A program made the position numbers and the translations under genes. 64,000 nucleotides of DNA from a virus. The stretch's first letter is position 1. Each line of letters opens with the position of its first letter. This document shows positions 5,160-63,873 of the stretch, in pieces. The DNA is taken from positions 16,915-80,914 of the IMG/VR virus record IMGVR_UViG_3300026382_000175; one strand, written 5' to 3'. Under the pieces are notes generated by a model. It saw nothing but the letters and a program-made list of their open reading frames with translations, ran no database searches and was not told the DNA's origin.

Positions 5160-6084
5160 CGTATTTCCTCACTAATTCAAGAAATAGTGAAACTGGGATT
5201 GTTTTTATAATTTGGCACTGAGAACCTTTTATGTTAGAGTAGCTGATACTAGGGTAGTTGTAAGCAACTCTACTCTTCTCTAATGGATCAAATAGTATCT
5301 TAGACTTATCTCCTGATATTATCAATGCATGGTTTACTTTAGGTTCACCTTGCTGTGATAAGGTTATAGAAGGGTTATTACCACAAGACACTAAAGCTAT
5401 TGAGTGAGAGTGATACTTATCAGGGTTGTCATAAACCTGCTTTGCTACCTGAGCATAGCAGGAAGAGTTAGCAGGATTGTTAGAGAGGGCGAAAAGTAGC
5501 ATTTTCTTTAACACATCTTTTACTGTAAACAAGTCCTCTCCTATTATGTCTAGGAGGAATTCTACATCCTCTTTATCAAGTCTATTCTCTATAAGAACCT
5601 TCTTCTCTATTTCCTCTATTAGAGGTAATACTTCTTCAGTAAAGAGCTCGTACTCAACTTCTTCTAAGAGTGGTTTGTAGTAAGCTCCTTCTATATACCA
5701 ATGGGTTTTAAGGCTGGAGAGTAGCTTGAGGAATTCGTATCTTTCTGATGGGGGTAAATAAGATTCACTCCTGAATAACCTAGTAGCTAAGAATCTACCT
5801 AGTGCTCTGTGAAACCTTTTACCAGATATAGATTTGTGCCACTTTCTTAGAGCTAAGAGGTATTTAGTTCTGTACTTTTTCCAGTTCTGCTTTTGGATTA
5901 AAGAACGCTTCCTATCTTTTAACCTTTTCTTTAGAGGTTTACGACGCTTAATAATACCTTGCCAGATTTCTTCAATGGCTTCTTGTGAGAGGTTTTCTAC
6001 ATCATTAAGGGTTTCATATTGGTTTAGTAAACCTGCTTCAGAAAGAAGTAATATTTTGTCGTTTGGGTCTCTAAACTTTATCAT
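5143..6084 (-). CDS. hypothetical head-module protein (basic, possibly prohead core)
   Basis: 313-aa ORF with Arg/Lys-rich segment, adjacent to the protease gene. Confidence 0.65.
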   Translation of the reverse strand: MIKFRDPNDKILLLSEAGLLNQYETLNDVENLSQEAIEEIWQGIIKRRKPLKKRLKDRKRSLIQKQNWKKYRTKYLLALRKWHKSISGKRFHRALGRFLATRLFRSESYLPPSERYEFLKLLSSLKTHWYIEGAYYKPLLEEVEYELFTEEVLPLIEEIEKKVLIENRLDKEDVEFLLDIIGEDLFTVKDVLKKMLLFALSNNPANSSCYAQVAKQVYDNPDKYHSHSIALVSCGNNPSITLSQQGEPKVNHALIISGDKSKILFDPLEKSRVAYNYPSISYSNIKGSQCQIIKTIPVSLFLELVRKYDGKVS

Positions 6085-12840: not shown

Positions 12841-14706
12841 TCAATCAAAATAGCTACCCCAAAACAGTTGAGTTAGAGTTTGGTTTTGTTGAGAGGTATT
12901 ACTTACTTCTGCTTTATGAATCCTTTGGAAAGCTAACTGTTTGATTAAATCTTTATTAGTTACTAAATTCCAATAAACTCCTACTACTGCATCAGCACCA
13001 TCTTTACTACCTTTAGTTCCATCAGGGAACTCTTGAGGGTGATCTATTTTCTTACCTATATCCTCTACATGTAATAACTCTTTAATCAGTAAGTCGTGTT
13101 TAGGTATCCAAACTCTTTCCTCATATATAGCGTCTCTGAAGGAGAGGTAAGGGTCTTTAGTTCTATCTACTGATAAGAGAGCTGTTTTATAACCCATCTG
13201 GGTTAACTGTTGCCTCATATCCTCAGACTGAAACCCATCAATAGTTACCATTGCTATTGGGTAACCTAATCTAGAAAGGTCTACTATGAATTGTCTTATC
13301 TTGTAAAATGGAATTCTCTCCCCTGGTAGAGGTTCTAAATAAGCTACGAAATCTATAACTACTTCTGGTTCAGAAAAAGAGTGTTTTTCTAAAGTTAGTG
13401 GGTCAACTCTTTCTATTGTTTTGTAGCCTTTTATGTAACCTGAAGCTATACCTGTCCTATCTCCTGTTATGGAAAGGTCTATATGAATAACTCTAGGGCA
13501 CTCTTTAAAGAGTGGGTTCTTTAGGTAGTTTATGTTGAAGTAGTTAATTAAGACATCTGATTTGTCGTTAAAGGATAATCTAATTATCTGTTGGTTAACA
13601 GGGTTAGTAACTGAAGCTTGTTTTATGAGTATGTTTTTAGTTTTGAATATCCTATGGGTTGAACCTACTGAATAACCAGCTAAGTCTCTTATGGCATTGT
13701 GTAAGTCTAACTCAAATTTATCCTTTAGCTCTATTGGAACTTCTATTACCTTAGTTTCATCTATGTATTGCAGTTGGGACTCATCTTCTATTATGAATGG
13801 ATCAGTAGTTTCATCTCCTATGAAAACCTTAAAGGTTTCACCTGAATAAATACCTAGATGTTTCTTAACTTCCCATATAGGGTATTGGAAGATTATTACT
13901 CCTTGCTTACCTCTTACCTTTTCTGCATGCTGGGAAACGAAATCAGTAGGAGATTTCTCAGAAGACACTAAGCAAAGATGTCCTGGAAGTTTGCCACCAG
14001 CTTGAGCAAACCTAGATTCCATTCTTCTAAGGAGTGCATTGTAAGACTCTTGAGCTTGGTTAGATATTACATCAAAGTTAGCTTCATCAAGTATTCCTCC
14101 AAATACAGCCATACCAAGAGTGTGGGTAAACCTAGAACCTGCTACTATACCTATGTTATTAACAAATCTGATTTCAGATGTTTTCCTATTCTCAGCATCT
14201 AAATGTTCTTGGAAGAACTCTGAGTTAGCTATTAGGTTCTTAAATGGTTCATATAAAACCTGATCAGCCAATCCTAGTGTAGCGTTGAAGAGAGCTATTA
14301 CTATCCTATCAGTAGGAATTAAGTTAAACTTTTTATGAGGATTTTCCAATAGGAGAAGTTTATAAAGATCATAAAGTGTTATAACCCTTGCTATTGAACT
14401 CTTGCCAACCCCTATCGCACCTCGCAAGATGCACTCATAATAAGGAGAGTAGAATGGGTTAGGAAAGATTGTTTTTAGAGCTTCTTTCCATAATGGGTAT
14501 ATCTTACCTCCTAAAGAAAGGCCTAAATACTTAGGATGTTCTATAAAGGTTATTATGTCTACTGGAACTTCTTTATAGCCCTCTAATTCAGCATATAGTT
14601 GGAATAAAGATTGAGGGTCATTTTGGAACTTCTCTATTAGCTTCTTTAGTATAGACCTCTCTTTAGGAGGTAAGGTTTTTAGTTTATTGATTAGTTGGTT
14701 TAGCAT
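12841..14706 (-). CDS. terL: terminase large subunit
   Basis: Walker A GAIGVGKS, Walker B ILDEANF, nuclease IHIDLS...D, C-terminal KIDHP...GSKDGADA. Confidence 0.9.
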   Translation of the reverse strand: MLNQLINKLKTLPPKERSILKKLIEKFQNDPQSLFQLYAELEGYKEVPVDIITFIEHPKYLGLSLGGKIYPLWKEALKTIFPNPFYSPYYECILRGAIGVGKSSIARVITLYDLYKLLLLENPHKKFNLIPTDRIVIALFNATLGLADQVLYEPFKNLIANSEFFQEHLDAENRKTSEIRFVNNIGIVAGSRFTHTLGMAVFGGILDEANFDVISNQAQESYNALLRRMESRFAQAGGKLPGHLCLVSSEKSPTDFVSQHAEKVRGKQGVIIFQYPIWEVKKHLGIYSGETFKVFIGDETTDPFIIEDESQLQYIDETKVIEVPIELKDKFELDLHNAIRDLAGYSVGSTHRIFKTKNILIKQASVTNPVNQQIIRLSFNDKSDVLINYFNINYLKNPLFKECPRVIHIDLSITGDRTGIASGYIKGYKTIERVDPLTLEKHSFSEPEVVIDFVAYLEPLPGERIPFYKIRQFIVDLSRLGYPIAMVTIDGFQSEDMRQQLTQMGYKTALLSVDRTKDPYLSFRDAIYEERVWIPKHDLLIKELLHVEDIGKKIDHPQEFPDGTKGSKDGADAVVGVYWNLVTNKDLIKQLAFQRIHKAEVSNTSQQNQTLTQLFWGSYFD

Positions 14707-14736
14707 TATTGAACTCTTTTAGAGTGTTATGGATTT

Positions 14737-14812
14737 GCAAGGTAGGAGAAGGGAGGACTGGGACTCCCTTTACCTGAGTGGCCAACTCAGGCTCTCCTAC
14801 CCTGCCCCAGTC
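14737..14812 (-). ncRNA. GC-rich structured element: three-way junction with pseudoknot
   Basis: 13-bp stem with one G-U pair on the minus strand, two inner hairpins, loop UCCCAGUC complementary to upstream GACUGGG. Confidence 0.6.
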
Positions 14813-14855
14813 TGATATATGGGTTGTGAGGAATAATGTTTTGAGGTTGTATTAG

Positions 14856-15335
14856 CTATACTTCTAGATGTTCTACTACTGAACTTAGTATTTCCTTTAG
14901 GGTATTTCTGGTTTCTTGATTTATCTCTAGTTGCTCTAGTATAGAAGAGTCTTCTTCAGTTTCTACTACTCTTAACTCTACTGATTGAGATAACTTAGAA
15001 AGTTCTTTTAGGATTGGTACTAAGGACTTAAGGTTATTGAATACTGAGTTATAAGCTTGAACTAATCCATTATAGAACTCTACCTGTTCTATGAAGTTAG
15101 AGAAGTTAGCGTTAGAAAGTAATTCGTCTTCTAGGGTTTCAAGTTTCTCTCCTAGTTTTATCAGACGAGACATGTACTTTTTTATCATTAACCTTGTAAA
15201 AGAAGCTACTTCTAACTTTAGGGAATCTAAGTCTGGGTCTAGTTTGAAATCCTTGGAATTACCTTCTAGGTAGTCTCTTAGAGAGGTTAGTTGTTTATCT
15301 AGTTCTGATTGAACCTTTATGTTAGGCTTTTTCAT
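14856..15335 (-). CDS. putative terminase small subunit
   Basis: 159-aa helical protein immediately upstream of terL; positional call only. Confidence 0.5.
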   Translation of the reverse strand: MKKPNIKVQSELDKQLTSLRDYLEGNSKDFKLDPDLDSLKLEVASFTRLMIKKYMSRLIKLGEKLETLEDELLSNANFSNFIEQVEFYNGLVQAYNSVFNNLKSLVPILKELSKLSQSVELRVVETEEDSSILEQLEINQETRNTLKEILSSVVEHLEV

Positions 15336-15354
15336 TAGCTACCTCTTTAAGGTT

Positions 15355-15389
15355 AAAGAAAGGGTAGAGGGTTATTTCCTCTACCCTTT
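15355..15389 (-). terminator. intrinsic terminator
   Basis: 12-bp inverted repeat AAAGGGTAGAGG/CCTCTACCCTTT with TTTCTTT tail on the minus strand. Confidence 0.85.
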
Positions 15390-15515
15390 AACTCTCCTGG
15401 TCAGGGAGGAGAGATGAGGGGGAAGGAGGTCAGAATGGAATACAAAGTAAAGAGAATAGTTCAAGAAGGGAGAGTATTATTTAGCCTTAGCTAACCTAGT
15501 TAAGGTAAGTTAACT
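15355..15515 (-). ncRNA. candidate dual-target antisense RNA (targets 44710-44731 and 25450-25494)
   Basis: 15397-15418 identical to the sigma-gene RBS/start; 15424-15465 matches the PrimPol RBS/start with only G-U-compatible substitutions; terminator downstream. Confidence 0.7.
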
Positions 15516-15535
15516 CTATTATAATAACTTGATAA

Positions 15536-15970
15536 TTATAATGGTACTTGATTAGGTAGGTTAGAAATTAAAGTTTGGATTGGATTGTTTATGTAGGAAT
15601 AGGATTTAACTATACTTTGGATTAGATTAGCTAATGAACAGTCTTGGTCAAACTGGTAGTTTATTTCGTACTTCTCATTAAACTTGGACTCATCTATTAA
15701 TAAGGAAAACTTTAGGTCTTTAGCTTTTATGTGGGTTAGGATTAGTTCTAATAAAGTAAGCATAAGGCTTCTGCTTACTTTAAGTCTTAACTTTTTATCA
15801 AACTGATAATACTTAAGAGGAATGGTTAGCATTAGTCCAGAGTTAATATCATTGGCTGTAAAGTGGTATTTAGGATAGCGTAGTGTGGAAGAGTAGGTTA
15901 GGTTTAGCAAGTAGGTTTTCCTTTTGCCCTTCTTTAATCTCCTTATGAAGTCTCTTTCTATAATCAACAT
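15536..15970 (-). CDS. hypothetical protein
   Basis: 144-aa ORF, SD AGGAG. Confidence 0.65.
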   Translation of the reverse strand: MLIIERDFIRRLKKGKRKTYLLNLTYSSTLRYPKYHFTANDINSGLMLTIPLKYYQFDKKLRLKVSRSLMLTLLELILTHIKAKDLKFSLLIDESKFNEKYEINYQFDQDCSLANLIQSIVKSYSYINNPIQTLISNLPNQVPL

Positions 15971-15983
15971 GATTAGCTCTCCT

Positions 15984-16508
15984 TTATACGTAAACTGGAG
16001 ATAAACAGTAGTTAAGGAAGAAGTCTAACCAAGTTCCTATGTAATCATTATTAACGATGTAGAAAGGTAAAGATTCAGGTCTTTTAGGTAAGTAAAGGTT
16101 TAAAAGGTTGGAGAAGTCTGGTATTCTGTTTAAGTGATCAATGTTTACTATTGCTAAGGGTCGCATGTTATTGGTAGCAAATACTATCATTGGGAATGGA
16201 AATACTCCAAAGTGTTCATAGTACTTATGAGAGGCTACTTCTAATTGGTTAACCCAATCCTTTAGTTCCGATGTAAAGGTTAGGAGTTGGTTGGCTGAAA
16301 CTCTAGAACGCTTTTTACACTCTACTATTAAGTGAGGTCTTTTTATTGTGTCTGGAGAGAATACTATGTCTGAGTAGTCAACCTGGTAAGTACCTGAAGA
16401 TAAGGCTCTGTGGCATTCATGTTTTTTAAGATTCCAACACTCTCTAAAGATTTTAGCTACCCTCTCTTCAAACTGCTTTCCCTTATTCTTAGACCTATTT
16501 CTACCCAT
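15984..16508 (-). CDS. Holliday junction resolvase (PD-(D/E)xK, Hjc-like)
   Basis: SKNKGKQFEERVAK...SDIV...IVECKK. Confidence 0.85.
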   Translation of the reverse strand: MGRNRSKNKGKQFEERVAKIFRECWNLKKHECHRALSSGTYQVDYSDIVFSPDTIKRPHLIVECKKRSRVSANQLLTFTSELKDWVNQLEVASHKYYEHFGVFPFPMIVFATNNMRPLAIVNIDHLNRIPDFSNLLNLYLPKRPESLPFYIVNNDYIGTWLDFFLNYCLSPVYV

Positions 16509-16680
16509 ACTTACTTCTCCTTATTAACCTCTTTAGAATCTTTACCAGTTTGATTTTCTCTGAATCAGTTAATAATCTCCAACCTAATCTATTGTCGTAA
16601 ACTTGAACCTTAAAACAGTTTTGGCAAAATCTGTAATACTTTGACTTGACTTTAACCTCCTCCCACTGATGGTTGCACAC
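16501..16680 (-). CDS. small zinc-ribbon-like protein (59 aa, absent from ORF track)
   Basis: GTG start with GGAG SD; MCNHQWEE...FCQNCFK; fills the nrdB-resolvase gap. Confidence 0.7.
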   Translation of the reverse strand: MCNHQWEEVKVKSKYYRFCQNCFKVQVYDNRLGWRLLTDSEKIKLVKILKRLIRRSKYG

Positions 16681-16691
16681 AATTCACTCCA

Positions 16692-17798
16692 CTAATCAAA
16701 GTTAATCTTGTCTATATCTTCTTCACTTACAGGTATGTGAGCATAATCAATAGCTCCAGTTTCAAAGAAAGAGGTTTTGTCTTGAGTTAAGAGTTTTTCT
16801 ATATCCTCAAATGGATTTCTGTTAACATCAAATATCGGAGATATGCCTAATAAGGCTAACCTTTGGTTAGTTAAGGTTTGAATGTAGTCTTTAATGTTCT
16901 GTTCAGTCATTAATGGAACTTCTCCTGCTACTGAATTAGTATAAAATTCAATATCTGCTTCTGCACTCCTACCAAATATCTCTTTAATTTCTTCTTCGTT
17001 GTAGTAATATCCTCTATCCCTCCACTCTTTTAGAATGTAAGTAAATAGAGGAATATGGAGAACTTCATCCTTTCTGATCTGGGTTATCTGTTGATTAGAG
17101 CCTTGAAGAATGCCCAATTTATAAGCAAAAATATGGAAAGTATTAAATCCTGTAAAGAACACTACTCCTTCAATAGCTAAATCGTTTACCATAGCTCTAA
17201 AAACAGCTCTTTGGAGAGTTTCTTGTCTGTAAGAAAGTTGATTTAGATTATTCTCATCTACTATTCCTCTGTTAACTAAATCATTAAGAGCTTGAAAATC
17301 CCTAGTTATAGCGTAATTCCTCTTAAGAAGAGGTTCAAAATGCTTGAACTTGTAGTAAACCTCATTAATCTTCTTGTCATCTTCCCCAAACACTGATTTA
17401 AGTATATACTGGTAAGACTCTCTGTGAAGGGATTCAATAGCTGTATGCCAATAGAGAGCTGTTTTTATTTCCTCATCAGCCATTACTCTTAACAGTGTTG
17501 AAGTATTATTAGGAACTATTGAGTCTAGGAGAATTAGAAAGGATATAACATACTCAAAGGTATCCTTTATACCTTTAGGTAAGTCATCAAACTGCTTTTT
17601 GTCCTCAGACATAGATATTTCCTCTGGTCTCCAAAGAATAGACATAGCTTGCTTAATCCACTCTATTGCATAAGAGTGTTTGTTCAGGTTGAGGTTGGCT
17701 AGTCCTGTAGACTTTTCTACTACTTCATCAGTCCAGATTAATTCACTGAAGTTGTCATTACCATTTGGATTAAACACTTGAGGAAACCTACTTACCAT
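16692..17798 (-). CDS. nrdB: ribonucleotide reductase class I beta subunit
   Basis: WRPEEI, ESLHRESY (radical Tyr), EGVVF, DEVLH dimetal ligands. Confidence 0.95.
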   Translation of the reverse strand: MVSRFPQVFNPNGNDNFSELIWTDEVVEKSTGLANLNLNKHSYAIEWIKQAMSILWRPEEISMSEDKKQFDDLPKGIKDTFEYVISFLILLDSIVPNNTSTLLRVMADEEIKTALYWHTAIESLHRESYQYILKSVFGEDDKKINEVYYKFKHFEPLLKRNYAITRDFQALNDLVNRGIVDENNLNQLSYRQETLQRAVFRAMVNDLAIEGVVFFTGFNTFHIFAYKLGILQGSNQQITQIRKDEVLHIPLFTYILKEWRDRGYYYNEEEIKEIFGRSAEADIEFYTNSVAGEVPLMTEQNIKDYIQTLTNQRLALLGISPIFDVNRNPFEDIEKLLTQDKTSFFETGAIDYAHIPVSEEDIDKINFD

Positions 17799-17828
17799 CT
17801 TTTCTAACCTCCTTAGTAGAGTAGTATA

Positions 17829-20267
17829 TTAATTAGCACAGCTTACACACTCTTCTTTAGCTTGTTCTCCTTCTGCTTTAGCTACTATCCTAGCATAGTA
17901 AAGAGCTTTTATTCCACTCTTCCAAGCCTTATAGATAAACTGACCTAGTATCCTACCCACTTCTTCTTTTGGAATGAAACCATCTCTTATGTTAACTGGA
18001 TAATCAAAAGAAATTCCTGAGTCTATATACTTTTGTATAAACGAAACTATCTCTATTACATCGTATAAGTCCTGCTCAGTAAACTTTGAATACTCATCAT
18101 AATAAAACCAACCTTCTGTAATATATCTAGGAAATACTACATAAACTCCAGTAGACTGCTTTTCAGTCTGAATAAGGTTAAACGGAGGAAAAATACTTGC
18201 AGTAGTTCCTGCGTAAATAGATGTAGAAGTATTAGGAGGAGCATTTAACAGCATTGTATTCCTGATTCCATATTTCTGAATATCTTCTATCAACTCATCA
18301 ACTTCACCCCTATCTACATCAAATTCAACAACAGGAGAAACTTCAAAACCTTCTCCATAAGGGATTTGGCCTAAGAGTACTTCGTTCCACTTAGTTTCAC
18401 TATACTTATTTGTTCTACCTTTCTCTTTAGCTAAATCTACACTAGCTCTTATAGAGTAAAATGCTATCCTACCAAATATCTGCTTAAGCAAGTTAAACAA
18501 CTCATCTTTGTTAACATTTCTACTAGTTAACCTGTAAGCGTATAATTTATTGTCGTCTATTGACTTCCTAATGAGTAAGTCTGCTAGTCCTACAAACCCT
18601 ATTCCTAAAGTTCTGTAGTCCTGATTGTGCTTTTTAATCTCATAGATAGGATGACCTGCTATGTCAAGAATGTTGTCCATATACCTAACTACTAACCTCA
18701 TCAAAGAACTTAATTTCTGATTATCCTGTAAATAACCTAGCTCATACAAAACTGGTAAGTTGAGGGAAAGAAGGTTGCAAGAGTGTACATAACCTAAATC
18801 TTCTATCTTTTCATCAGGTTTCTTACCTTCAGGGTTTGAGTTAGAAAAAGGAGAGTAAGACTCTACACAAAGGTTCCCACACTTAATTTGCTCCTTGAAG
18901 GGAGAATACTGATTTACTGTGTCTACAAAGAAGATATAAGGCATTCCTGATGCCAATATGTTCTTTATTAATTGTCTATAAATTTCCCTAACCTTATAAA
19001 CTTTACCTCTTATCTTTCCTTGCTTAACTAACTCCTCTGCTTTCGTATAATTTTCCTCAAACTCTTTCCCCCAACAGTTTACCAAGTCAATACCACACTT
19101 CATTTTCAACTCATAGTGGTCTATGAGTGTCCAATCTTTATTCTCTTTAACCCTCTCCATAAACAAGTCTGGTACTACTACTTGAGGGTAGAGGGAGAAC
19201 ATTTTCATTCTTATTTCCCCAATAGGATTACGCATAGCCATAAAGTCCAATATATCCATATGCCATATAGGGAGAGCTACTGTACCAGCTCCTTTGCGTT
19301 TTCCAAGCTGATCTATCGTATCTAACATATCGTCAAGTATCTTACACCACTTTAACACTGATACTGATTTACCTTTATTCCCTTGTATATAACTTCCATT
19401 AGGTCTTACTTCTCCAAGATAAATACCTAACCCTCCTCCTCTTTTACTAATCTCTGCAACTTGCCAAAATGAATACATAATACTTTCAAGGTTATCGTGA
19501 ATATCAAGGATATTACAAGATGATAAATTACCTTTAGCTCTTCTAAGGTTAGAAAGTTGAGGAGTAGCTGGAATTATTACCCTATCAAGTAATAGTTTAT
19601 AAAACTTTTTAACATTATTCATGAATAATTCTTTATTTTGCTTATAATCTGGAAGAAAACCAAGAATAGAAATTAAGAGGAGAGCTTCGGCAAAAGTTTC
19701 AACAGGTTTATTATTATAAGTCAATATATATGATTTTGAGAATTTTACTACCTGATAGTAAAAGTCATTCCACATAAAATAAGGAAAGTTATAATTATAA
19801 TCTAACTGAACCTTTTTAGCATACTCATAGAGTTCTTCAAGAATGTCATTAGAGATTTTAAGTATTCTCTCATCATAAATACCTAATTCTATATACTTTT
19901 TTAAGTGAAAAATCCAATCGTTAGCATCTTGAAAAAACCCGTAATCATCAGTAAAAGTGTCATACTCCCTTTCTCTATGTAATCTTATGTCTTTTATCCA
20001 ATCTAATAAATAAAACCTACCTGCTAGAATAGAATAGTCTTTAATTCTACCTTTATCTGATATTGAAAGCTTATTAGCAGTAGCTATTAAATTTTGTTGG
20101 ATTTCTTTAGTAGTAATACCAGACTTAAGAGTAAAGCGAAATTCTTTCCAAAATTGCTCATCATCTATATTTAGACCTTGCCTGCAAAAGTTATACATCT
20201 TAATAATCTTATCCATACTGAAAGGTTCTTTATGACCGTCTCTCTTTACAACTTCAATTCCTATCAT
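17829..20267 (-). CDS. nrdA: ribonucleotide reductase class I alpha subunit with ATP cone
   Basis: VVKRDG ATP cone, PATP, LSSC, GNLCVE, PPNTSTS, LYY, C-terminal CVSC. Confidence 0.95.
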   Translation of the reverse strand: MIGIEVVKRDGHKEPFSMDKIIKMYNFCRQGLNIDDEQFWKEFRFTLKSGITTKEIQQNLIATANKLSISDKGRIKDYSILAGRFYLLDWIKDIRLHREREYDTFTDDYGFFQDANDWIFHLKKYIELGIYDERILKISNDILEELYEYAKKVQLDYNYNFPYFMWNDFYYQVVKFSKSYILTYNNKPVETFAEALLLISILGFLPDYKQNKELFMNNVKKFYKLLLDRVIIPATPQLSNLRRAKGNLSSCNILDIHDNLESIMYSFWQVAEISKRGGGLGIYLGEVRPNGSYIQGNKGKSVSVLKWCKILDDMLDTIDQLGKRKGAGTVALPIWHMDILDFMAMRNPIGEIRMKMFSLYPQVVVPDLFMERVKENKDWTLIDHYELKMKCGIDLVNCWGKEFEENYTKAEELVKQGKIRGKVYKVREIYRQLIKNILASGMPYIFFVDTVNQYSPFKEQIKCGNLCVESYSPFSNSNPEGKKPDEKIEDLGYVHSCNLLSLNLPVLYELGYLQDNQKLSSLMRLVVRYMDNILDIAGHPIYEIKKHNQDYRTLGIGFVGLADLLIRKSIDDNKLYAYRLTSRNVNKDELFNLLKQIFGRIAFYSIRASVDLAKEKGRTNKYSETKWNEVLLGQIPYGEGFEVSPVVEFDVDRGEVDELIEDIQKYGIRNTMLLNAPPNTSTSIYAGTTASIFPPFNLIQTEKQSTGVYVVFPRYITEGWFYYDEYSKFTEQDLYDVIEIVSFIQKYIDSGISFDYPVNIRDGFIPKEEVGRILGQFIYKAWKSGIKALYYARIVAKAEGEQAKEECVSCAN

Positions 20268-23123: not shown

Positions 23124-23154
23124 CTCAACTCCCCTCTCAAACCTGTTTACTAAA

Positions 23155-23339
23155 CTAAACTCAAATCAGGGAGAATTTCAGGCTGGTTAATCTAAACTTT
23201 CTACTCACTATTAACTAAACCAATCTACCCTAGAATTTCAGGTTAAACCTATCCAACTATCCCTATCTTAAAATTAAACTCTCTTACTATCAAATTTCAG
23301 GTTGGTAGTAACCTGAAATTCTAATCCAATCCAGTTTAG
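23155..23339. promoter_or_regulatory. divergent cluster of four phage-type promoters CCTGAA-N16-GTTTAG (three minus, one plus)
   Basis: Minus copies 23155-23182, 23215-23242, 23274-23301 (GTTTAA variant); plus copy 23312-23339; located at the strand switch. Confidence 0.85.
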
Positions 23340-23370
23340 TTTTATAGATACCAATCAGAAGGAGGTTAGT

Positions 23371-23580
23371 ATGAGTAAGAAAACTTACCAGTCCTTACAA
23401 GAGTGGTTATCCACTACTAATCCTATGAACAAGCACTACCTAGCTCAGATTATTTCCCTAATAACTATGTTAGAAGTAGGAGATGAGATTAGTTTAGGAT
23501 TAGTTAAGATTAAGAAGGAGTCTCATACTGATAATGGTTATACTTTCTCAGTTAGTATAGATAGTTCTCTATTAGAGTAA
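23371..23580 (+). CDS. hypothetical protein
   Basis: 69 aa, SD AAGGAGGT. Confidence 0.75.
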   Translation: MSKKTYQSLQEWLSTTNPMNKHYLAQIISLITMLEVGDEISLGLVKIKKESHTDNGYTFSVSIDSSLLE

Positions 23581-23651
23581 TCCCCTATTTTTCAGTAGGT
23601 TTCTTAAGTATTACAACAACTTTCCCAATCTAGTAAGCTAGAGGAGGAGTT

Positions 23652-24725: not shown

Positions 24726-25340
24726 CCTACTCTACACTATCCTACTTACTTATCTTATACTCTCAACACTGCTATACTACTAATCTTACTAACCTAGTTA
24801 CTCTACTTAACCCTGTTATCCAATCCTATTAGTTAGCTTACTATTCCAGTACTTTAGTTTTGAGTTAGATAGTTAGTTATATCGCTATATACCCTTCTGA
24901 TATTGATATAGTTATACTGATATCCCCCTTTTTCAGTAGGTATTACTTGATTTACAATAGCTTTCTAGTATTACTTATTCAGTTAGATAATTTTTGATTA
25001 GTAGTATAGTTAGTATATAGATAATCCCCCCATTTTCAGTAGGTTTTCCTTGTATTCCATAGGTTATCTCATTATTCGTAGAATACTAATCTGATAGAGA
25101 TATACTGGTAATGGTATAGGTAACAGGTATAGAGTTAGGTAAGTAGGTTAGATAGTACTCTTATACTACTATAAGTATAGATAATCCCCCCCATTTTCAG
25201 TAGGTTTCTTAAGTATAGCAATATCTATCTCAGAATTAGTAATAGAAAACTTATGAATTACTATAACTAAGAGAAATAGAGATATGGGAAAACTAAGTAA
25301 TTCAAGGAGTTATACATATTAGGGAAAATTATCTAACTAA
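24726..25340. promoter_or_regulatory. candidate replication origin with iteron-like CCCC(N)TTTTCAGTAGGT repeats
   Basis: Copies at about 24921, 25021, 25181 (fourth at 23578); C-rich to G-rich strand switch; upstream of the PrimPol-like gene. Confidence 0.55.
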
Positions 25341-25344
25341 CCTA

Positions 25345-25430
25345 CCTGAAACTCTAACTCAGACTAGTTTAGTTATATAGAGTGGGAAAGTTATATACCC
25401 AACCTGAAATTCTAATCCAATTCTGTTTAG
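25345..25430 (+). promoter_or_regulatory. two tandem CCTGAA-N16-GTTTAG promoters
   Basis: 25345-25372 and 25403-25430. Confidence 0.8.
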
Positions 25431-25463
25431 TTTAGTAGAATAGGTTAACAGGAGGTTGTAAGT

Positions 25464-27698
25464 ATGGAATATAGAGTAGAGAGGATAGTTCAGGTTAGTA
25501 GATATAAGAAGTTGGGAGAAGAGGTAGATAGGACTACTGGTATAGTTTTTGTTAAGTATTACGATAGGCATAAGAAAACTGAGTTTTCAGCCTTCAAAAG
25601 TAAAGAAGATGCTAGGAAGTACTGGGAATATTGGATTGGACACGACCCAGAGGCTTTAAAGTTCTACATAAGCAGTGCTACGATAGAGGGAGAGTTTTCA
25701 GACTTTACCAGAGATGTAATAGAGTTTGAAACTCCTAATGGTAATAGATATCTCTCCTACTACAAAACAGATTTCTCCTTTGGTAAGGATTCTAACTTTA
25801 CCTTTGGAGTTCATGTTCCTAAAGGTACTACTCCTTACTATCCTACTGGTTGGTGGAATCTAAATGTACCTATGAAACCAGAAGACAAATTGATAATAGG
25901 AGTAGGTTCTCAGGTTAATATGGGTAAAGCTTTCACTAAAGAGCTAACCATAGATGAGTTCATAAAACTTATGGAAGCTAAAGGTAAGTTCTACACTCCC
26001 TTTGTCTTTGAGAATAACAAGAGGAATAAAGCTAACGCTTACAGACCTGAAAATTCATTAACAATGATCTGCATTGACGTAGACGATGATTTGAATTTGA
26101 TAGATATTCTGAAAGAAAAAGATAAAAATGGGTTTGTTAATTCCTTTCTTAATAGAGTTACCTACTACCTAGAGCAAGTTAGTAAGAGTGGAGAAGGTTA
26201 TCACTTCTTTGTACCTGTAAAGGTAAAAGACACTCAGCAACTCTTAAAAATTCTCAACTACCTTCAGCTAGAGTACAAAGGAATAGCAGATATTTCAGTA
26301 TTTGAACCAGCTAGGCTAATCTTCTCCTCTCCTTACAGGATAAAAGAGGTTTCTAGGATAGCAGTTACTAGGAACTTTTATGCTGATGTAGAGCTTACCC
26401 AATTAGAACCAGCTTCAGAGAGGTTAGAAAGAATCAAATCTCATCAGCTAACTATTGAGGGTCATAAGAACTATGTGAGGAATGATGGAGCTCTCTACAT
26501 AAGAACCTATGTAGATGGAGATAGGTTAGTTAAGTGGTTTGAGGAAAAGCATGGAAAACTAACTAGTAAAAAGCTTTTCTCAGTTCAAGTTACTTCTAAT
26601 CGCCAATCTATTTCCTCTATAAGCAACGAAAATAGTAAGGTAAGTACTAAACCCTTAGGTAGGGGTAAAAAGTCCGATAATGGCCAAATAGATAAACGAG
26701 GAGGCAAATTTTGGGATGAGTTAAAAGCTAGTACCATAGCAACTGTGAAAGGAGATTTAAATCCAGTTTCAGATAAGAGTAAGGTAAGGGAATACCAGAG
26801 TGGGTTAATAGGATTGATTAAAGAGCTTTCCAAGTTAGCAGGATTTAAGTTCTATGAGTTCAACAGGTATGACAAAGATGGAAATGTAGTAGGTAATTAT
26901 TACCAAATTTCAGTATCTCCTGATGAGAAATCTCCTATGGATATATTTCTGTATGATAACAACCCTGAGTTTTTCTACTTTCAATCTAAAAACGCTTTAA
27001 GACACTTCCCTAAGATATTTGAGGAGATAGTTAGCTATACTACTGATGGAAGACCTTGCTTACACATATCTTGGCTAATTAAACTGTTAAGCTTTATTTC
27101 CAAGAACTTCAAACCAGACTTCAACACAGCTAAGATTAAGGACTTGATTAAGAAGTATGGAATACATGAGAAGTATCTCTATTCTCACTTTGAGGAAGTA
27201 GAAGGATATGTAGTAGAGCTAATCAAAGCTCTTATCAAGAAGAAAGGTAAACCTGTAAGAGTATCTAAATACATTCCTAAAGAAATTATTAGCAAATCTA
27301 GAGTGTGGAGAAGTTTTAGGAAAGAGTTGGAAAGCTTAGGCTTTGTGTTTGAAAGGAAAAGAGGAGGGTTAGTAGTATATTGGGACGAAGAGAAAAAGAA
27401 AGACATTGATTACCTGAAGTATAACTCTAAAGGGCTTTCTCCTAAACTGAGGAAAACCTTTAAGAAGTTCTTTGCAGTGGTAAGTCAGGAAACTTGGTTT
27501 GAAGAGATAGTAGTAATACTAGAAGAAAACTGGGTTAAGCATATGGTTTATTGGGTTAGGAAGATGGTAGGAGAGGAGTTGAGAAAGTGGGAAATGATGT
27601 TTAAACGAAAACTGCGAAGTGGAGAAATGTTGTGGTATGAGGATAAACAAAAGCCTATTAGTGCTTTGTCCTATGTGATTACTAGGATGGTAGCTTGA
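25464..27698 (+). CDS. AEP-superfamily primase-polymerase / replication initiator-like protein
   Basis: IDVDD, SKSGEGYH and D..vfEPARL correspond to AEP motifs I-III. Confidence 0.65.
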   Translation: MEYRVERIVQVSRYKKLGEEVDRTTGIVFVKYYDRHKKTEFSAFKSKEDARKYWEYWIGHDPEALKFYISSATIEGEFSDFTRDVIEFETPNGNRYLSYYKTDFSFGKDSNFTFGVHVPKGTTPYYPTGWWNLNVPMKPEDKLIIGVGSQVNMGKAFTKELTIDEFIKLMEAKGKFYTPFVFENNKRNKANAYRPENSLTMICIDVDDDLNLIDILKEKDKNGFVNSFLNRVTYYLEQVSKSGEGYHFFVPVKVKDTQQLLKILNYLQLEYKGIADISVFEPARLIFSSPYRIKEVSRIAVTRNFYADVELTQLEPASERLERIKSHQLTIEGHKNYVRNDGALYIRTYVDGDRLVKWFEEKHGKLTSKKLFSVQVTSNRQSISSISNENSKVSTKPLGRGKKSDNGQIDKRGGKFWDELKASTIATVKGDLNPVSDKSKVREYQSGLIGLIKELSKLAGFKFYEFNRYDKDGNVVGNYYQISVSPDEKSPMDIFLYDNNPEFFYFQSKNALRHFPKIFEEIVSYTTDGRPCLHISWLIKLLSFISKNFKPDFNTAKIKDLIKKYGIHEKYLYSHFEEVEGYVVELIKALIKKKGKPVRVSKYIPKEIISKSRVWRSFRKELESLGFVFERKRGGLVVYWDEEKKKDIDYLKYNSKGLSPKLRKTFKKFFAVVSQETWFEEIVVILEENWVKHMVYWVRKMVGEELRKWEMMFKRKLRSGEMLWYEDKQKPISALSYVITRMVA

Positions 27699-27813: not shown

Positions 27814-27824
27814 GCTAAAGTTAG

Positions 27825-27852
27825 CCTGAAATTCTAAGGTTAGTTGGTTTAG
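27825..27852 (+). promoter_or_regulatory. CCTGAA-N16-GTTTAG promoter
   Basis: Exact consensus upstream of 27880. Confidence 0.8.
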
Positions 27853-27879
27853 TTTAGTAAACAATTTTAGGAGGTTGTT

Positions 27880-35146: not shown

Positions 35147-36142
35147 ATGGTTCTTAAAAACTTTCCCTTTGACTATAAGGTTAAGCCTTCAGACCCTAAC
35201 GAAATTCAAATTTGTTGTCCTTTCTGTGAGAAGTTAGGTAAGACTCCTGATACTAAATACCACTTATACATTCACTTAAAGAAAAAGGTATTTCACTGTT
35301 TTAGGTGTGGTAAGTCTGGTAAGTTCAGAACCTTAAACCAACTTATAAGAATTCTAACAGGTAAAAGTCCTAATCTGCTTGAGAGCGATTGGGATGAAAT
35401 TATTAAGGAAGCTTTAAGCTACTTTGACAAATCTTTCTATTTACCTGAAACTTCCCAAGCTCAAGAAGTTTTAGACCTGAATATTATTTCCTACCCAGTT
35501 AGTAAAACTCTTACTCCAATAGCTTACAACTACCTTAAGAGTAGGAATCTAAGCGATTCTGAGATAGAGGAATATCAGATAAGGGTTGGTAAGTCTTACC
35601 AAGTTGATAACAAAACTATAAGGAAGTGGAAAGGTAGGGTTTTATTCCCATTCTTTGAGAATGGTCAAGTTATTTACTTAGTAGGTAGGACTTATACCAA
35701 CCAAGAGCCTAAATACCTCAACTCTAAAGGTAATCGTAGAGATAAGCTATTCCCTAGCAGAACTTTCAAAACTTCTGAAATCATAGTTTGTGAAGGTATA
35801 TTTGATGTAATCAATGCTAAAAGGACTACTGGAATATACAGCGTAGCTACATTAGGTAAAGAGATAACAGAAGAGCAGGTTAACATTATGGTAGAGAATG
35901 GAGTTAGAACAGTTTACCTAGCATTAGACCCAGACTTAACTATTAAAGAATGGCAAAAGAACATCTGGAAATTCCTAGTTAAAGGTTGTAAGGTTTATCC
36001 AGTATTACTCCCACAAGGTTATGATGTAGACTCTATTGGAAGTAGGTTTCCTTATTACCTAGAGTTAGCTTTGAAGAAAAATTTTCTATCAACCCTCTTA
36101 TTTCAGCCTGAAATTCTAGTTCAAACCTGTTTAGTTTATTAA
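35147..36142 (+). CDS. DNA primase (zinc finger plus TOPRIM)
   Basis: CPFC...CFRC, PKYLNS, VCEGIFD, LDPD. Confidence 0.9.
   Translation: MVLKNFPFDYKVKPSDPNEIQICCPFCEKLGKTPDTKYHLYIHLKKKVFHCFRCGKSGKFRTLNQLIRILTGKSPNLLESDWDEIIKEALSYFDKSFYLPETSQAQEVLDLNIISYPVSKTLTPIAYNYLKSRNLSDSEIEEYQIRVGKSYQVDNKTIRKWKGRVLFPFFENGQVIYLVGRTYTNQEPKYLNSKGNRRDKLFPSRTFKTSEIIVCEGIFDVINAKRTTGIYSVATLGKEITEEQVNIMVENGVRTVYLALDPDLTIKEWQKNIWKFLVKGCKVYPVLLPQGYDVDSIGSRFPYYLELALKKNFLSTLLFQPEILVQTCLVY
36107..36134 (+). promoter_or_regulatory. CCTGAA-N16-GTTTAG promoter
   Basis: Exact consensus at the primase 3' end. Confidence 0.8.
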
Positions 36143-36164
36143 ACAGGTTGATAGGAGGGTTGAT

Positions 36165-37998: not shown

Positions 37999-38851
37999 CC
38001 ATTACCACTTTATAGATGGTAATTACCTTATGCATCGTTCTATCCATAAAGGTCAAGGATTAACTCACAATAATATTTTTACAGGAGGAGCTTACATCTT
38101 CCTTAGAACCCTTTTTTCTATTGGAAGCTTATCCAATATGATAGTAGTTTTTGATGGAGGTCACTCTAAAAGGAGGAAGCAATTATTAGAAACCTACAAA
38201 GTTAAGGAAAAGCATGACGATGAGTTTAGACAACAGTTCTCTACTACTCAGAAAATTCTAAAAGAGATTTTGCCTGCTTTAGGTATAGCTGTGGTTCAAA
38301 TTTCAGAGCAAGAGGCTGATGATATTATCTATTGGCTTACTACTAGGTTTTATCAAGGTAAGTCAACAGTCCATACTGATGATGAGGATTACCTACAATT
38401 ATTACAATGGAATGTTAAAGTTCACAGGCCTATGAAAGGAGAGTACTACGAATCTGAACAAGATTTTATAGACAAATATGGTTACCATTCTAAATACCTA
38501 GCTTTAAAGAAAGCTCTAATGGGAGACTCTTCAGACAACATTCCTGGAGTTAGAGGGATAGGAGACAAGAGAGCTACCCAGATTGTTAAGGAGATGTTTA
38601 AGCTAAACCTAGAACCTGAAATTCCTAACTTGGAGAGTTTAGTTAAACAGAGGAAGGAAACTTGGGCTAGGAAGGTATTAGATAATCTAGATATAGTAGA
38701 AAGAAATCTAAAGCTGATTGACTTTAGGTATGTTGACTTAGCTGATGTTAACATTCAGTTAGACTTCACTAAGAAAGATTTAATGTTAGCTACTAGGTTA
38801 TTTGGTAAGTATGGGTTTAAGAGTTTGTTATCCAAGTTAGTGGAGGTATAG
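37991..38851 (+). CDS. 5'-3' exonuclease / flap endonuclease (T4 RNase H-like)
   Basis: IDGN, VFDGG, EADD, GDSSDNIPGVRGIG. Confidence 0.92.
   Translation: MNNHYHFIDGNYLMHRSIHKGQGLTHNNIFTGGAYIFLRTLFSIGSLSNMIVVFDGGHSKRRKQLLETYKVKEKHDDEFRQQFSTTQKILKEILPALGIAVVQISEQEADDIIYWLTTRFYQGKSTVHTDDEDYLQLLQWNVKVHRPMKGEYYESEQDFIDKYGYHSKYLALKKALMGDSSDNIPGVRGIGDKRATQIVKEMFKLNLEPEIPNLESLVKQRKETWARKVLDNLDIVERNLKLIDFRYVDLADVNIQLDFTKKDLMLATRLFGKYGFKSLLSKLVEV
38615..38642 (+). promoter_or_regulatory. intragenic CCTGAA-N16-GTTTAG promoter
   Basis: Exact consensus inside the flap nuclease gene, upstream of helicase and polymerase. Confidence 0.7.
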
Positions 38852-40912: not shown

Positions 40913-43900
40913 ATGAACTCCAGATGTGAAATCTGTAAACTTTATAAGCAATGCAAGACTCACTTTGTTAAGCCCAGAGGTAATTTAGAAAATCCTAATA
41001 TTATAATAGTAGGAGAAGCCCCTGGGTGTGTTTCTGGAGACACATTAATAGAAGTTGCTTTTAGGGATGTATCCAAATATCCAAAAGGAATACCTATAAG
41101 AGAGTTAGTGGGGAAGAAGGACTTTTATGTCTATTCTTATGATATTGAAAAAGATAGACTGGTTCTTGGGAAAGTTAAGAAGGTATGGAAGACTGGAACG
41201 AAAATGACTTACAAGGTTACTTATAAGTGGAAAGCTGCTACTCAAGACGGTGAGGTGAAATGGTTTGAAGATTCTATTATTGTAACTTCTAATCATAAGT
41301 TCTTACTTAAAAAAGCTAAACCAAAAGATCCGTTTAAAGGTATTAATACAAATGTGGAATATGAATACCTTTCTATTGATGAAGGGTTAACCGTAGGACA
41401 TAGTATAATGCCATTCTACAGACGCTTTTATAGTGAAAGAGATAAGCGATACACTTTTATAGGTGTATCACATGACACTATGCAACCAGAACATAAGTTC
41501 TTAATGGAGTTTTTAACTGGAAAAGATTTAGGAGGAAGAAAGTATAATGTCCATCATAAAGATGGAAATGGTTTGAATAATACTTTGGAAAATCTTGAAG
41601 TTCTTACTGTAGCTGAACATGCAAGGATTCACAAGTTAGAATCTAACCCTATGCACGACCCTGTTGTAAGAGAAAAACATAGGCAAGTTCTTTCTTCCAA
41701 AGAGTATAGGGAAAATATGAGTAGAATTATGAAAGAAAAGTTGAGGTCAGATAAAGAATTATATGAAAGAAGAGTAAAGCAACTTTTAGAAGCAGGTAAG
41801 AAAACAAGATTTAAGAAAGGTGAACTTGATCCTGTTAATTACTATAAAAGACTTCTTTCTTATGTGAGAAAAGGTAAGAGAACTCTAGAATGGGTAGAAG
41901 AGAGATTCAAATCTAAGTTTCCAGATTTACCATTTCCACCCATAGATAACCATATTATTGTTTCTATTGAACCTTATGGAGTGATAGATGTTTACGATAT
42001 GGAAGTAGAAAAGTATCATAATTTTGTAGCTAATGGAATTATTATTCATAATTCCACTGAAGATAAGCAAGGGAAACCTTTTGTAGGTAAATCAGGTAAA
42101 TTATTAGAAGAAGTATTTAGGCTCTTCAATAAGAAATTTGAAGAAGTTTGCTACATAACTAATGTAGTTAAGTGTTGTCCTTATGCAGACCTTTTTAATC
42201 CTAGTAAAGGAGTTAGGCCTCCTACTGATAAGGAAATAGAATGTTGCCTTCCTTTTCTGTTAGAAGAACTAGAAAAGTTTAAGGGTAAAGATGTCGTTAT
42301 AATGCCTTTAGGTAATACTGCTTTGAAAGGATTAGGTATAAAAGGTAAGATTTCTGAGTTAGCTGGTAAAGAACTAAAGTGGAATGGGTTTAAGGTTATT
42401 CCTAACTTTCATCCTGCTTCTATTTTAAGGAACCCTAAGTGGAAGCAAAAGTTTATATCAGTATTTGGTAAAGTACTAGACAATAGGCAAGTGGAGTGGG
42501 AGAATTTAATTAAACCTTTACAACCTAAAGAAGCTATCAACTTTTTACAGAAGAAACTTGAGGAGAAACCTGAATGGTTTTGTTTTGATATAGAAACAGA
42601 TGGACTTAATCCATTTAAAAATAGAATAATTATGCTTACTTTTTCATTTCCAAATGACCCTTATGGTTATGTAGTTCCTTTATATCAAAAAGACCCTTTA
42701 CCAGGAGATAATTATGATGTTTTTAATGTTGTAGTAGATAATATTTCTAAGCAAAAGGTATTACAACTTACAAAACAGTTATTAGAAACTATTCCTGTTA
42801 TTGGGCATAACATTAAATTTGATTTAAAATTTATGGTAACTAAAACAGGTTTGGATTTATCCAAAGTTAAAGTAAAAGACGACACATTATTTTTAGCTCA
42901 TTTTGTATTTAACAAGGTTCAACTTGGAGAGACTTTACAACTTAAAGACATAGCTGTTAAGGTATTAGGTTTAGATGGTAGATGGGATGAAGAAGTTAAG
43001 GAATATTTAAAGTCAAGGTATCGTCTAAGGAAAGATAGACATTATGGAAATATTCCAACTTCTTTACTAATTAAGTATGCTGGATTTGATATTCTCTTTA
43101 CTAAAGAGATTTATTTAGTGCTTTCTGAGAGAGTTAAAGTATTTAACTGTGACGAGATTAGGGAAGCTCTTAATAAGGCTACAATTATGATAGCTGAATC
43201 TGAAATAAAAGGAGTTAAGGTAGATAAACAAGTTAGAGATTTTCTTGACTATAAATATCAGTCTGAAATAGAAAGAGCTGAAAAAGAGTTACAGGAATTA
43301 CCTAAAATTAAGAAATGGAAAGAACTAAGAAAAGTATCTTGGTTTAATCCTTCTTCTCAAAAACATCAAAAGGAGGTAGCATTTAAAGTCTACCAATTAC
43401 CTGTAGTAGAAACAACTCAAAAAGGACAGCCTTCTTTAGGTAAGAATGCTATTAACATATATTTCTCCTCTCTTCCAGAAGGTTCAGAAGAAAAACGATT
43501 TATAGAATTGTTTTACAGAATAAAACTTTTCAAAAAATTAAAGTCAACCTACATAGATGGATTTATAAGTAGTATAGACGACCTAGGGATGTATCATCCT
43601 GAATTCAACATAGCAGGAACAATAACAGGTAGATGGTCATCAGGATGGCATACTGTTGCATCAAAGTCCGACATTAAGAGAATGTTTGTTAGTAGGTGGA
43701 AAGATAAAGGAGGACTTATAGTTAGCTTTGATTATTCTCAGTTAGAGGTTAGAATTGCCTCAAGTCTTTCCAATGAAACTAAACTCATAGAAGCTTATAA
43801 GCAAGGGATAGATGTTCATAAAAGAACTGCTTCTATGATATTTAATAAGCCTATGGAAGAGATTACTAAGCAAGAGAGGAAGATTGCTAAAACTGTTGTG

Positions 43901-44626: not shown

Positions 44627-44650
44627 TAGGTAGGAAATTTACCTACTTTG
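44625..44650 (+). terminator. probable terminator after polA
   Basis: AGTAGGTA/TACCTACT stem with a short T tract. Confidence 0.5.
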
Positions 44651-44662
44651 TAAGAAAACCAC

Positions 44663-44690
44663 TTGCCTTCTCTTGAAAAAGGCCTATAAT
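44663..44690 (+). promoter_or_regulatory. host sigma70-type promoter for the phage sigma gene
   Basis: TTGCCT-N16-TATAAT. Confidence 0.65.
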
Positions 44691-44726
44691 TATAGATAAG
44701 GAAACAAAACTGGTCAGGGAGGAGAG

Positions 44727-45377
44727 ATGAGAAAGGTAGAAAGGTTTGAAAACTCAGAGTTAAACTCACTCCAAGCAATTATCTACAAATTCTTACAGAG
44801 GAAACCTGAAAACTTAGACTTTGATGAACTTTATCAGGAACTTTTCCTTAAAGGGTTAGAGTTATTAAAAGACCCAAAAGTTCAAACTCTTAATGAGACT
44901 GAGAAGTGGAAGTATATCAAAACTGCTTTACATAACCACATAAAAGACCTTTTAAATGCTCAACCTAAAGAAGTACCTCTTTCAGAAGTAGTAGAACCTG
45001 AAAGTCAACTTTCCTTTATAGAACAAGTATTATCGCCCTATACTAATGTTAGCAAGTCTCCAATTCCAGTGGTTAAATTTATTAATCCAGAAACCTATGC
45101 TATTGGTAAGGAATTGATTGATAAAATAATGGCTTGGGCTGAAACTCAAGATGAAGGGACAAGAATTTTCTTTGAAGAGTATTTTAATCCAAGTCCTGAA
45201 GTGTTAGAGTATATGGAAAAACAAACTAATAAGGGAACTTGGAAAAATAGGAAGTTTGAACCTCTATTCTTAGCAAAGGTGTTAACTGAAATAGGTAAGT
45301 GGAAGTATAAAGATGGTAGAGATAAGTGGTTGAAAATAAAAAGAAAAATGATTAGGGATTTAGGGTTGGCTTTTTAG
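44727..45377 (+). CDS. putative ECF-like RNA polymerase sigma factor
   Basis: DFDELYQELFLK...KYIKTALHNHIKDLL matches sigma region 2; NPE linker; own promoter and terminator. Confidence 0.7.
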   Translation: MRKVERFENSELNSLQAIIYKFLQRKPENLDFDELYQELFLKGLELLKDPKVQTLNETEKWKYIKTALHNHIKDLLNAQPKEVPLSEVVEPESQLSFIEQVLSPYTNVSKSPIPVVKFINPETYAIGKELIDKIMAWAETQDEGTRIFFEEYFNPSPEVLEYMEKQTNKGTWKNRKFEPLFLAKVLTEIGKWKYKDGRDKWLKIKRKMIRDLGLAF

Positions 45378-45393
45378 CCAACCCTAAATTTTT
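45358..45393 (+). terminator. intrinsic terminator
   Basis: 14-bp stem ATTTAGGGTTGGCT/AGCCAACCCTAAAT followed by TTTT. Confidence 0.85.
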
Positions 45394-45427
45394 CAGTATT
45401 TCTTATTTTTCTAGAAGGAGGTTTAAA

Positions 45428-49292: not shown

Positions 49293-49325
49293 TTTAATAG
49301 AAAGTTAAGCGATGAGGAGGGTACT

Positions 49326-63852: not shown

Positions 63853-63873
63853 ATACTCCTCCATTAATTAGTG

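Follow-up and report, generated by a model that had tools for sequence, protein, structure and literature searches.

A gap of 200 nt (15336-15535) in a phage genome, flanked on both sides by minus-strand open reading frames (ORFs), carries sense copies of the start regions of two distant plus-strand genes, one for a 216-amino-acid (aa) sigma-like protein and the other for a 744-aa replication-type protein. The window analysed here, to which coordinates refer unless another record is named, comprises 64,000 nt, bases 16915-80914 of one 80,914-bp virus record (IMG/VR IMGVR_UViG_3300026382_000175, hereafter G000) with a GC content of ~34%. The copies lie opposite the local transcription strand, so that a local RNA would be antisense to both start regions. 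On balance, we favour the view that the minus-strand RNA of the gap would be a regulatory antisense RNA that blocks both start regions and ends before the terminase-side genes. An initial annotation of this DNA had proposed such a dual-target RNA, and the copies, their orientation, the specificity of the predicted pairing and the recurrence in relatives speak for it, whereas the accompanying argument from wobble pairs and the suggested third target do not hold as they were put, and the PrimPol label of the 744-aa protein is at best tentative.

The start-region copies were confirmed by direct reading and by script. Positions 15397-15418 are identical to 44710-44731 (22/22), the part of the sigma-like target with which module 1 would pair, whereas 15435-15465 agree at 26/31 positions with the beginning of the 744-aa gene (25464-25494) and 15424-15432 at 7/9 with its Shine-Dalgarno (SD) sequence (25450-25458). 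When the gap is compared by BLAST with the whole 80,914-bp genome, these regions give the top two non-self matches (22/22, E 1.7e-6, and 25/29, E 1e-3), the next one appearing at E 0.019. Both copies are oriented like their targets, which in either case include the start codon of an ORF on the plus strand, 10 kb (25464) and 29 kb (44727) away; the minus-strand location of the flanking genes was also as initially described (Table 1). Among the 46 exact repeats of at least 16 nt in the genome, the 22-mer is the sole link between a gap and a distant start codon outside the promoter-like and iteron-like repeat families. A screen of every called start region against its own genome (E <= 0.01), which misses module 2 of G000 for lack of an exact 9-mer, indicates that in G000 and in two related genomes, G001 and G003, the gap is the only site with sense start-region copies between opposite-strand genes.

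Table 1. Position and strand of the gap elements, their targets and the adjacent genes (window coordinates)
Feature	Coordinates	Strand	Description
Module 1	15392..15418	-	Plus-sense copy (15397-15418) of leader, SD and ATG of the 216-aa gene
Module 2	15424..15465	-	Copies, in plus sense, of the 744-aa gene's SD (15424-15432) and initial 31 nt (15435-15465)
GC-rich terminal hairpin	15359..15389	-	Stem 15362-15370/15378-15386 extended by AAA/TTT; 12 pairs; ends 25 nt before the 159-aa start codon
Best-conserved gap block	15466..15535	-	Near-identity to G001; promoter-like site, motif, imperfect palindrome, two TATAAT boxes
Target 1	44663..44731	+	TTGCCT 44663-44668, 16 nt, TATAAT 44685-44690 (sigma-70 type, by eye), ~30-nt leader, SD, ATG 44727
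Target 2	25450..25494	+	Start region of the 744-aa gene (SD and 31 coding nt); ATG 25464
159-aa gene	14856..15335	-	Directly downstream of the gap; small-terminase position, before the 621-aa gene
144-aa gene	15536..15970	-	Directly upstream of the gap; last of the thyX-nrd-PDDEXK run; only in G000 and G001; annotated without function

The genes on both sides of the gap are encoded on the minus strand, so that an RNA with the antisense modules would be expected whenever the leftward block is transcribed. The predicted fold of this RNA starts with an unpaired region containing module 2, followed by a 7-bp module-1 hairpin and a 12-bp terminal hairpin. The module-1 hairpin, in which CUCUCCU and AGGAGAG enclose the C-rich loop CCCUGACC, is present as originally drawn in both the minimum free energy (MFE) and the centroid folds; its arms correspond to 15392-15398 and 15407-15413, with the 3' arm lying outside the copied 22 nt, and the centroid folds leave module 2 unpaired. 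Among all 36-nt windows of the genome, the one with the terminal hairpin ranks third in hairpin strength; the strongest (45355-45390) closes the sigma-like gene, and the next ones lie at the ends of other gene blocks. The terminal hairpin is thus a plausible candidate for an intrinsic terminator and for the 3' end of the antisense RNA and, given its short distance to the ATG of the 159-aa gene, the downstream genes would need read-through. The number of G.U pairs in the hairpins does not settle the strand, as one pair favours each of them. No Rfam family matched at gathering score in the whole window, and a search of 15200-15700 gave only a chance match (E 0.28).

Three related IMG/VR contigs were found by protein-anchored scans. 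G001 (84,995 bp) encodes neighbouring proteins that are 96-100% identical to those of G000, whereas G002 (88,755 bp) shows 96% identity in the 159-aa protein and 56-58% in the 744-aa protein, and G003 (58,829 bp, 66% complete) 74% in a 157-aa protein and 52-54% in the 744-aa protein. A metagenome scan recovered the same three contigs only, a scan of GTDB genomes recovered none, and a viral scan with the 744-aa alignment added L042 (7.4 kb), which is too short to include the terminase-side gap. A further contig, G004 (98.8 kb, GC 23%), was excluded from the counts, as low-complexity matches swamp the screen and it contains no 744-aa homologue. In G002 and G003, which are devoid of the 144-aa gene, the gap is bordered by the PDDEXK gene and the 159-aa-type gene.

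The gaps of two of these relatives match the start regions of their own genomes by BLAST. In G001, the gap shows 38/42 identity to its own 744-aa gene (E 4e-11) and 20/21 to the leader (E 4e-4), whereas in G003 it matches its own, different 744-aa start at 19/19 positions (E 4.8e-5). The start regions of the 744-aa gene clearly differ among G000/G001, G002, G003 and L042, and none of G000, G001 and G002 is matched by the G003 gap at E <= 0.05. A neutral relic would not be expected to produce such a perfect copy of the own version within an otherwise unalignable gap. A CU-rich stretch of the G003 gap also matches the starts of a DnaB-like gene (15/15; the label comes from a Pfam match of the window's homologue) and of a 74-aa gene (13/13), which suggests that one RNA could reach several genes of the replication block; the regions concerned are 2298-2324, 5423-5448 and 14170-14188 of G003. 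In the case of G001, an extra A between the SD and the ATG (GGAGGAAGAG vs GGAGGAGAG) occurs in both the gap copy and the leader, and in neither of the two G000 copies. This common indel is the clearest matched change and, lying in the middle of ~21 shared bases, makes gene conversion unlikely. The G001 leader also has a T where both gaps and the G000 leader have a C, a difference that would leave a G.U pair.

The proposed pairing was assessed with RNAduplex against all start regions of each genome. In G000, the 744-aa and 216-aa genes come out first and second among 110 start regions (-61.4 and -61.1 kcal/mol), followed at some distance by the next one (-41.8), and none of 40 shuffles reaches these values. 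The same two positions are taken in G001 by the 744-aa gene and by the 236-aa gene that follows the leader there (117 start regions), whereas the 744-aa gene ranks first of 83 in G003, again with 0/40 shuffles reaching the energy in either genome. In all four minus RNAs (G000-G003), a CU-rich stretch predicted to be unpaired precedes a terminal GC hairpin (z -2.4 to -3.9), and the terminal hairpins found at the same place in the three relatives differ in sequence from that of G000.

The label of the 216-aa protein as sigma-like gathers weak but consistent signals, without any Pfam or PHROG match: a hit to TIGR02937 (E 1.7e-4, 21.3 bits vs a cut-off of 42.9), a profile comparison with PDB in which 6/10 weak matches are sigma factors (best E 0.017), an Atlas lead, and eight remote homologues, one of which carries Sigma70_r2 (E 3e-8). 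The promoter-like site upstream and a hairpin at the end of the gene (within 45338-45409, -23.4 kcal/mol per 36-nt window, followed by a T run) indicate that in G000 the gene is a self-contained unit. In G001, however, the sequence matching 44560-44738 (97%) precedes a 236-aa ORF, and the sigma-like homologue, with 74% nucleotide identity, appears ~1 kb later. This 236-aa gene sits between the leader and the sigma-like gene in both G001 (L005 1669-2379) and G002, and its absence from G000 implies that the leader is a mosaic junction. The target of module 1 is thus, as far as the gene order tells, the leader of a unit containing the sigma-like gene, which it directly precedes only in G000. A promoter-plus-leader cassette was also observed twice in G002 (2176-2255 and 83690-83769; exact repeats of 50 and 29 nt, with TTGACA-17-TATATT by eye), before two different genes of 236 and 113 aa.

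Several observations weigh against a functional antisense RNA. The comparison covers only four genomes, with G000 and G001 close to each other, and the G002 gap gives only internal palindromes and no copy when searched by BLAST against its own genome; its best RNAduplex partner is the sigma-like gene (1/117), yet 10/40 shuffles match that energy. The initial annotation had stressed that every difference between copy and target would be a wobble pair and, in G000, all 7 differences indeed have A or C in the gap where the target has G or T, respectively. In module 2 of G001, on the other hand, all 4 differences are G (gap) vs A (gene), which would give C.A mismatches, and the overall count of 8 wobble-compatible and 4 disruptive differences shows no significant excess. 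Moreover, the G000 gap copy is closer to the G001 gene (29/31) than to its own gene (26/31). It shares 25/31 positions with the G003 gene, and the G000 gene itself only 20/31, so the copy looks like the older state, with the G000 gene seemingly having changed A to G three times since. Module 2 differs at 5/31 positions between G000 and G001, and the whole gap is 86% identical, whereas 4-fold sites of six neighbouring genes diverge by 7.2-16.9% (nrdA was left out, its genes being out of register with a nucleotide identity of 0.67); this similar rate of change indicates no sign of purifying selection on module 2 in this pair. As for compensatory changes among relatives, the own copy of G003 and the indel in both G001 copies agree with them, whereas the C.A mismatches of G001, the near-neutral change of module 2 and the missing G002 copy do not. 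The hairpin that had been called a strong intrinsic terminator is real, but a terminator scan calls no terminator there (0 found), probably because its A/U arms lengthen the stem and leave a short or interrupted U tail. Promoter-like sites are no more frequent than expected (3 found vs 3.1 in one scan, 49 vs 61 in another), and the repeated cassette of G002 indicates that recombination moves or duplicates regulatory pieces in this group.

Some of these points would also fit a less likely explanation in which the copies are non-functional recombination scars now in decay, left by gene-start fragments inserted through illegitimate or short-homology recombination, perhaps at SD microhomologies. 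Module 2 spans 42 nt in G001 and 31 nt in G000, with a scrambled distal part and a 1-nt frame shift, and 3/5 of its differences in G000 are synonymous; the near-neutral divergence, a copy lost or never present in G002, the cassettes duplicated elsewhere in that genome and the mosaic leader with the extra 236-aa gene behind it in G001 point in the same direction. However, a neutral scar would not retain the 19/19 identity to the own start of G003 when the remaining gap is unalignable and the 744-aa proteins are so divergent, and independent insertions of one gene's start at one locus need a cause. Besides, every module includes the start codon, which by our own rough estimate would be the case for ~5% of random 20-40-nt fragments, the indel is common to both G001 copies, and an additional CTCTC beyond the copied 22 nt completes the module-1 hairpin.

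Upstream of module 2, the block 15466-15535 is the best conserved of the gap. It contains a 9/12 promoter-like site on the minus strand (TTAACT 15503..15498, 16 nt, AATAAT 15481..15476) and the motif CTAAG-N-AAATA (15490..15478), which is present in the gap of all four genomes, 102-143 nt before the 159-aa-type gene, and has a single further intergenic occurrence across them, in G000. Either a promoter or a protein site is a candidate for this element. The TATAAT boxes of the initial annotation do exist (15518-15525 and 15535-15542, on both strands), with the reservation that promoter-like sites do not exceed chance, and TTATAAT and related words are no general intergenic motif. A third target had been suggested for 15466-15510, and none was found by BLAST (best E at least 0.28) or by RNAduplex with a 135-nt RNA; this stretch belongs instead to the best-conserved block and, in G001, extends the homology to the 744-aa gene.

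The conserved motif and palindrome upstream in 4/4 genomes would also suit a gap that is mainly a cis-acting leader or attenuator of the packaging/structural operon, where the CU-rich anti-SD stretches and the hairpin would control read-through into, or translation of, the 159-aa gene, and any resemblance to remote gene starts would be a secondary matter or a means of sensing those mRNAs. The position of the hairpin, which all downstream transcripts must pass, the location of the gap at the border between nucleotide-metabolism and terminase-portal genes, and an MFE fold that pairs part of module 2 with the SD of the 159-aa gene are all in line with such a role, as are the non-coding RNAs (ncRNAs) derived from 5' untranslated regions (UTRs) in PhiKZ, with a possible premature terminator before the start codon (PMC8545117). 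We consider this reading unlikely, given that a generic anti-SD element does not account for 22-42 nt of identity reaching into coding sequence nor for the tracking of each genome's own gene, that the cis pairing is missing from the centroid fold, and that no antiterminator gene was identified.

With respect to the second target, the PrimPol label finds no sequence match in Pfam, PHROG, NCBIfam or PDB. An Atlas lead from the 744-aa protein to RepB_primase scores only 0.88, and its AlphaFold model (pLDDT 51.9) is too poor for a structure search. The invariant positions D205 and D207 (D-x-D) and S242-G243, G245 and H247 (SG-x-G-x-H) bear a possible resemblance to motifs I and II of the AEP primase-polymerases. 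Two copies of a repeated promoter-like motif stand just before the gene (25343-25381 and 25401-25439). This ~39-nt motif (AACCTGAAATTCTAA, ~9 nt, GTTTAGTTTAGTAGA) was noted at 23133-23348, 25343-25439, 27823-27861, 36105-36143, 38613-38651 and 49207-49301. It has eight plus-strand copies, standing before this and other plus-strand genes, as well as inverted matches within the divergent region (23133-23304), and may be a promoter specific to the phage, perhaps for the sigma-like factor. Iteron-like repeats (CCCC.ATTTTCAGTAGGTTT...) at 23573-23627, 24924-24965, 25017-25071 and 25178-25232, in the long non-coding region that precedes the 744-aa gene, mark a candidate origin.

These iteron-like repeats just upstream of the 744-aa gene, and the unusual conservation of its first ~24 nt across relatives, bring in a very improbable alternative, namely that the plus strand or the DNA of the gap is what matters, in the form of decoy starts or mini-ORFs, or as duplicate protein sites such as an operator or a second origin. 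Sequence comparison by itself does not distinguish selection for identity from selection for complementarity. On the other hand, the sole plus-strand promoter match is a 9/12 site located 380 nt away, and mini-ORF frames and SD are not kept between G000 and G001; a 26-aa plus-strand ORF (15414-15494) was rejected on these grounds. Furthermore, the part common to three copies is the ATG plus 9 nt, and a DNA site would give no account of a second module taken from the leader of another gene.

According to the antisense reading that we favour, the gap RNA would be released either as the 3' end of the thyX-nrd-PDDEXK-orf144 message or as a short transcript from a promoter in 15466-15535, and would end at the terminal hairpin. 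Module 1 would form 22 bp with the leader (~30 nt) of the 216-aa gene, covering its entire SD/AUG part, and module 2 would pair with the SD and the initial 10 codons of the 744-aa gene. Such pairing would block binding of the 30S subunit, and the long duplexes would probably also invite cleavage by a double-strand RNase. With strong leftward transcription, the levels of sigma-like factor and of replication protein would then fall, through either negative feedback or an early-to-late shut-off; the direction and timing of this effect are inferred, as are the making of the RNA, its end at the hairpin and its pairing in vivo. A more elaborate version, to which we attach little probability, is a reciprocal, RNA-only early-to-late switch between the gap RNA and the two early messages. 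In such a switch, the leader before the packaging/structural genes would be built from captured starts of the sigma-like and replication-initiator genes, and the pairing would silence both messages and at the same time reshape hairpin 1, the terminator and the SD of the 159-aa gene within the leader, so that transcription and translation could proceed to the terminase and head genes. Over evolution, the element would be renewed by re-copying of the start regions, in a manner that could be likened to plant microRNA genes, which originate as inverted copies of the genes they target.

Should the RNA prove real, it would represent a phage regulator that lowers a sigma-like transcription factor and a replication protein together, acting from the place where metabolic genes give way to packaging genes. 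Such an RNA would also show that regulators can arise and be kept current by copying the ribosome-binding region of their targets, and it would offer a rule readable in the genomes of uncultured phages, which consists in looking for sense start-region copies on the non-coding strand of a gap.

Regarding the genomic setting, the public runs that contain this phage DNA are labelled as hydrothermal-vent metagenomes, with no RNA run found to contain the stretch, and a DNA contig of one run (X3) spans 15300-15677 with 15 differences and 3 gaps; no DNA match to 14000-18000 was found in a phage GenBank collection. Minus-strand genes run from 23123 down to 548 and plus-strand genes from 23652 to 53075. 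The leftward block includes thyX (Thy1, E 2e-28), both ribonucleotide reductase subunits, a PDDEXK nuclease and the 144-aa ORF, after which comes the gap. Beyond it follow the 159-aa ORF, with no family match in profile searches, a 621-aa protein that weakly matches the large terminase (phrog_9, E 9.7e-7), a metallophosphoesterase, and a 504-aa protein whose match to portal proteins is very weak. This gene order makes the gap the border between nucleotide-metabolism and terminase-side genes. Elsewhere in the window, 40913-44626 encodes a 1237-aa DNA polymerase of family A that also carries a UDG domain and a 3'-5' exonuclease, together with an HNH-endonuclease-containing intein close to the N-terminus. 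Near-identical repeats of 127-134 nt (60206-60339 and 63867-64000) flank a 1210-aa gene, pieces of which are repeated at the start of the contig (1-117 and 77246-77362 of the genome; exact repeats of 23-117 nt); these repeats could correspond to tail-fibre-type variation, to a repeat-based assembly join or to a diversity mechanism.

A last question is how the gap element compares with known RNA regulators. CpxQ, SroC and DapZ are examples of base-pairing small RNAs (sRNAs) of the 3'-end or intergenic type. As with these, the gap RNA would carry an unpaired seed just before a terminal hairpin at the end of a coding transcript, directed to the SD/AUG of distant mRNAs and to several targets, and in G000 complementarity to the SD and start codon of mRNAs encoded elsewhere is indeed found. 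However, its complementarity covers 22-42 nt copied from the targets, vs a seed of 7-12 nt in those sRNAs, and the candidate, as read from the sequence, is encoded by a phage and directed to the phage's own genes. The derivation of base-pairing sRNAs from mRNA 3' ends or intergenic regions is the subject of a review (PMC9438474).

Among RNAs that act on messages of the same phage, cis-antisense RNAs such as OOP, aQ and P22 sar share with the gap candidate a long, near-perfect duplex over the start region, a block of translation and probable RNase III cleavage; they are transcribed opposite their own target gene, whereas the gap antisense would be a displaced copy with targets 10 and 29 kb away (for the lambdoid examples, see PMC12197685). 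The candidate would also resemble trans-acting phage RNAs in lowering the expression of phage regulatory or replication-related genes by pairing, as reviewed for VpdS of VP882 and 24B_1 of Phi24B (PMC12197685). From the border that precedes the terminase-side genes, it would address two separate transcription units that lie 10 and 29 kb away. VpdS and 24B_1, by comparison, are short-seed or microRNA-size RNAs of temperate phages. P1/P7 c4 and P4 CI are likewise phage RNAs that pair with phage messages and lower such genes, but their sites of action belong to the same operon as the RNA and serve the control of lysogeny, whereas the targets of the gap RNA are encoded on the opposite strand, in separate units, each preceded by promoter-like sequences.

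The late leader of lambda has the layout pR'-6S RNA-tR', and the gap resembles it in being a short leader with a strong terminator (in our case a candidate one) just before late packaging/structural genes. Lambda 6S is not known to act as an antisense RNA on early genes. PMC12197685 presents it as an Hfq-dependent phage sRNA of unknown function, and PMC8545117 reports UTR-derived ncRNAs of equally unknown function in PhiKZ. A limited literature search, which is no proof of absence, did not find the layout of the gap element described. In any case, the combination of long pairing blocks derived from the targets themselves, two distant targets and a site just before the packaging genes would set the gap element apart from these known systems.

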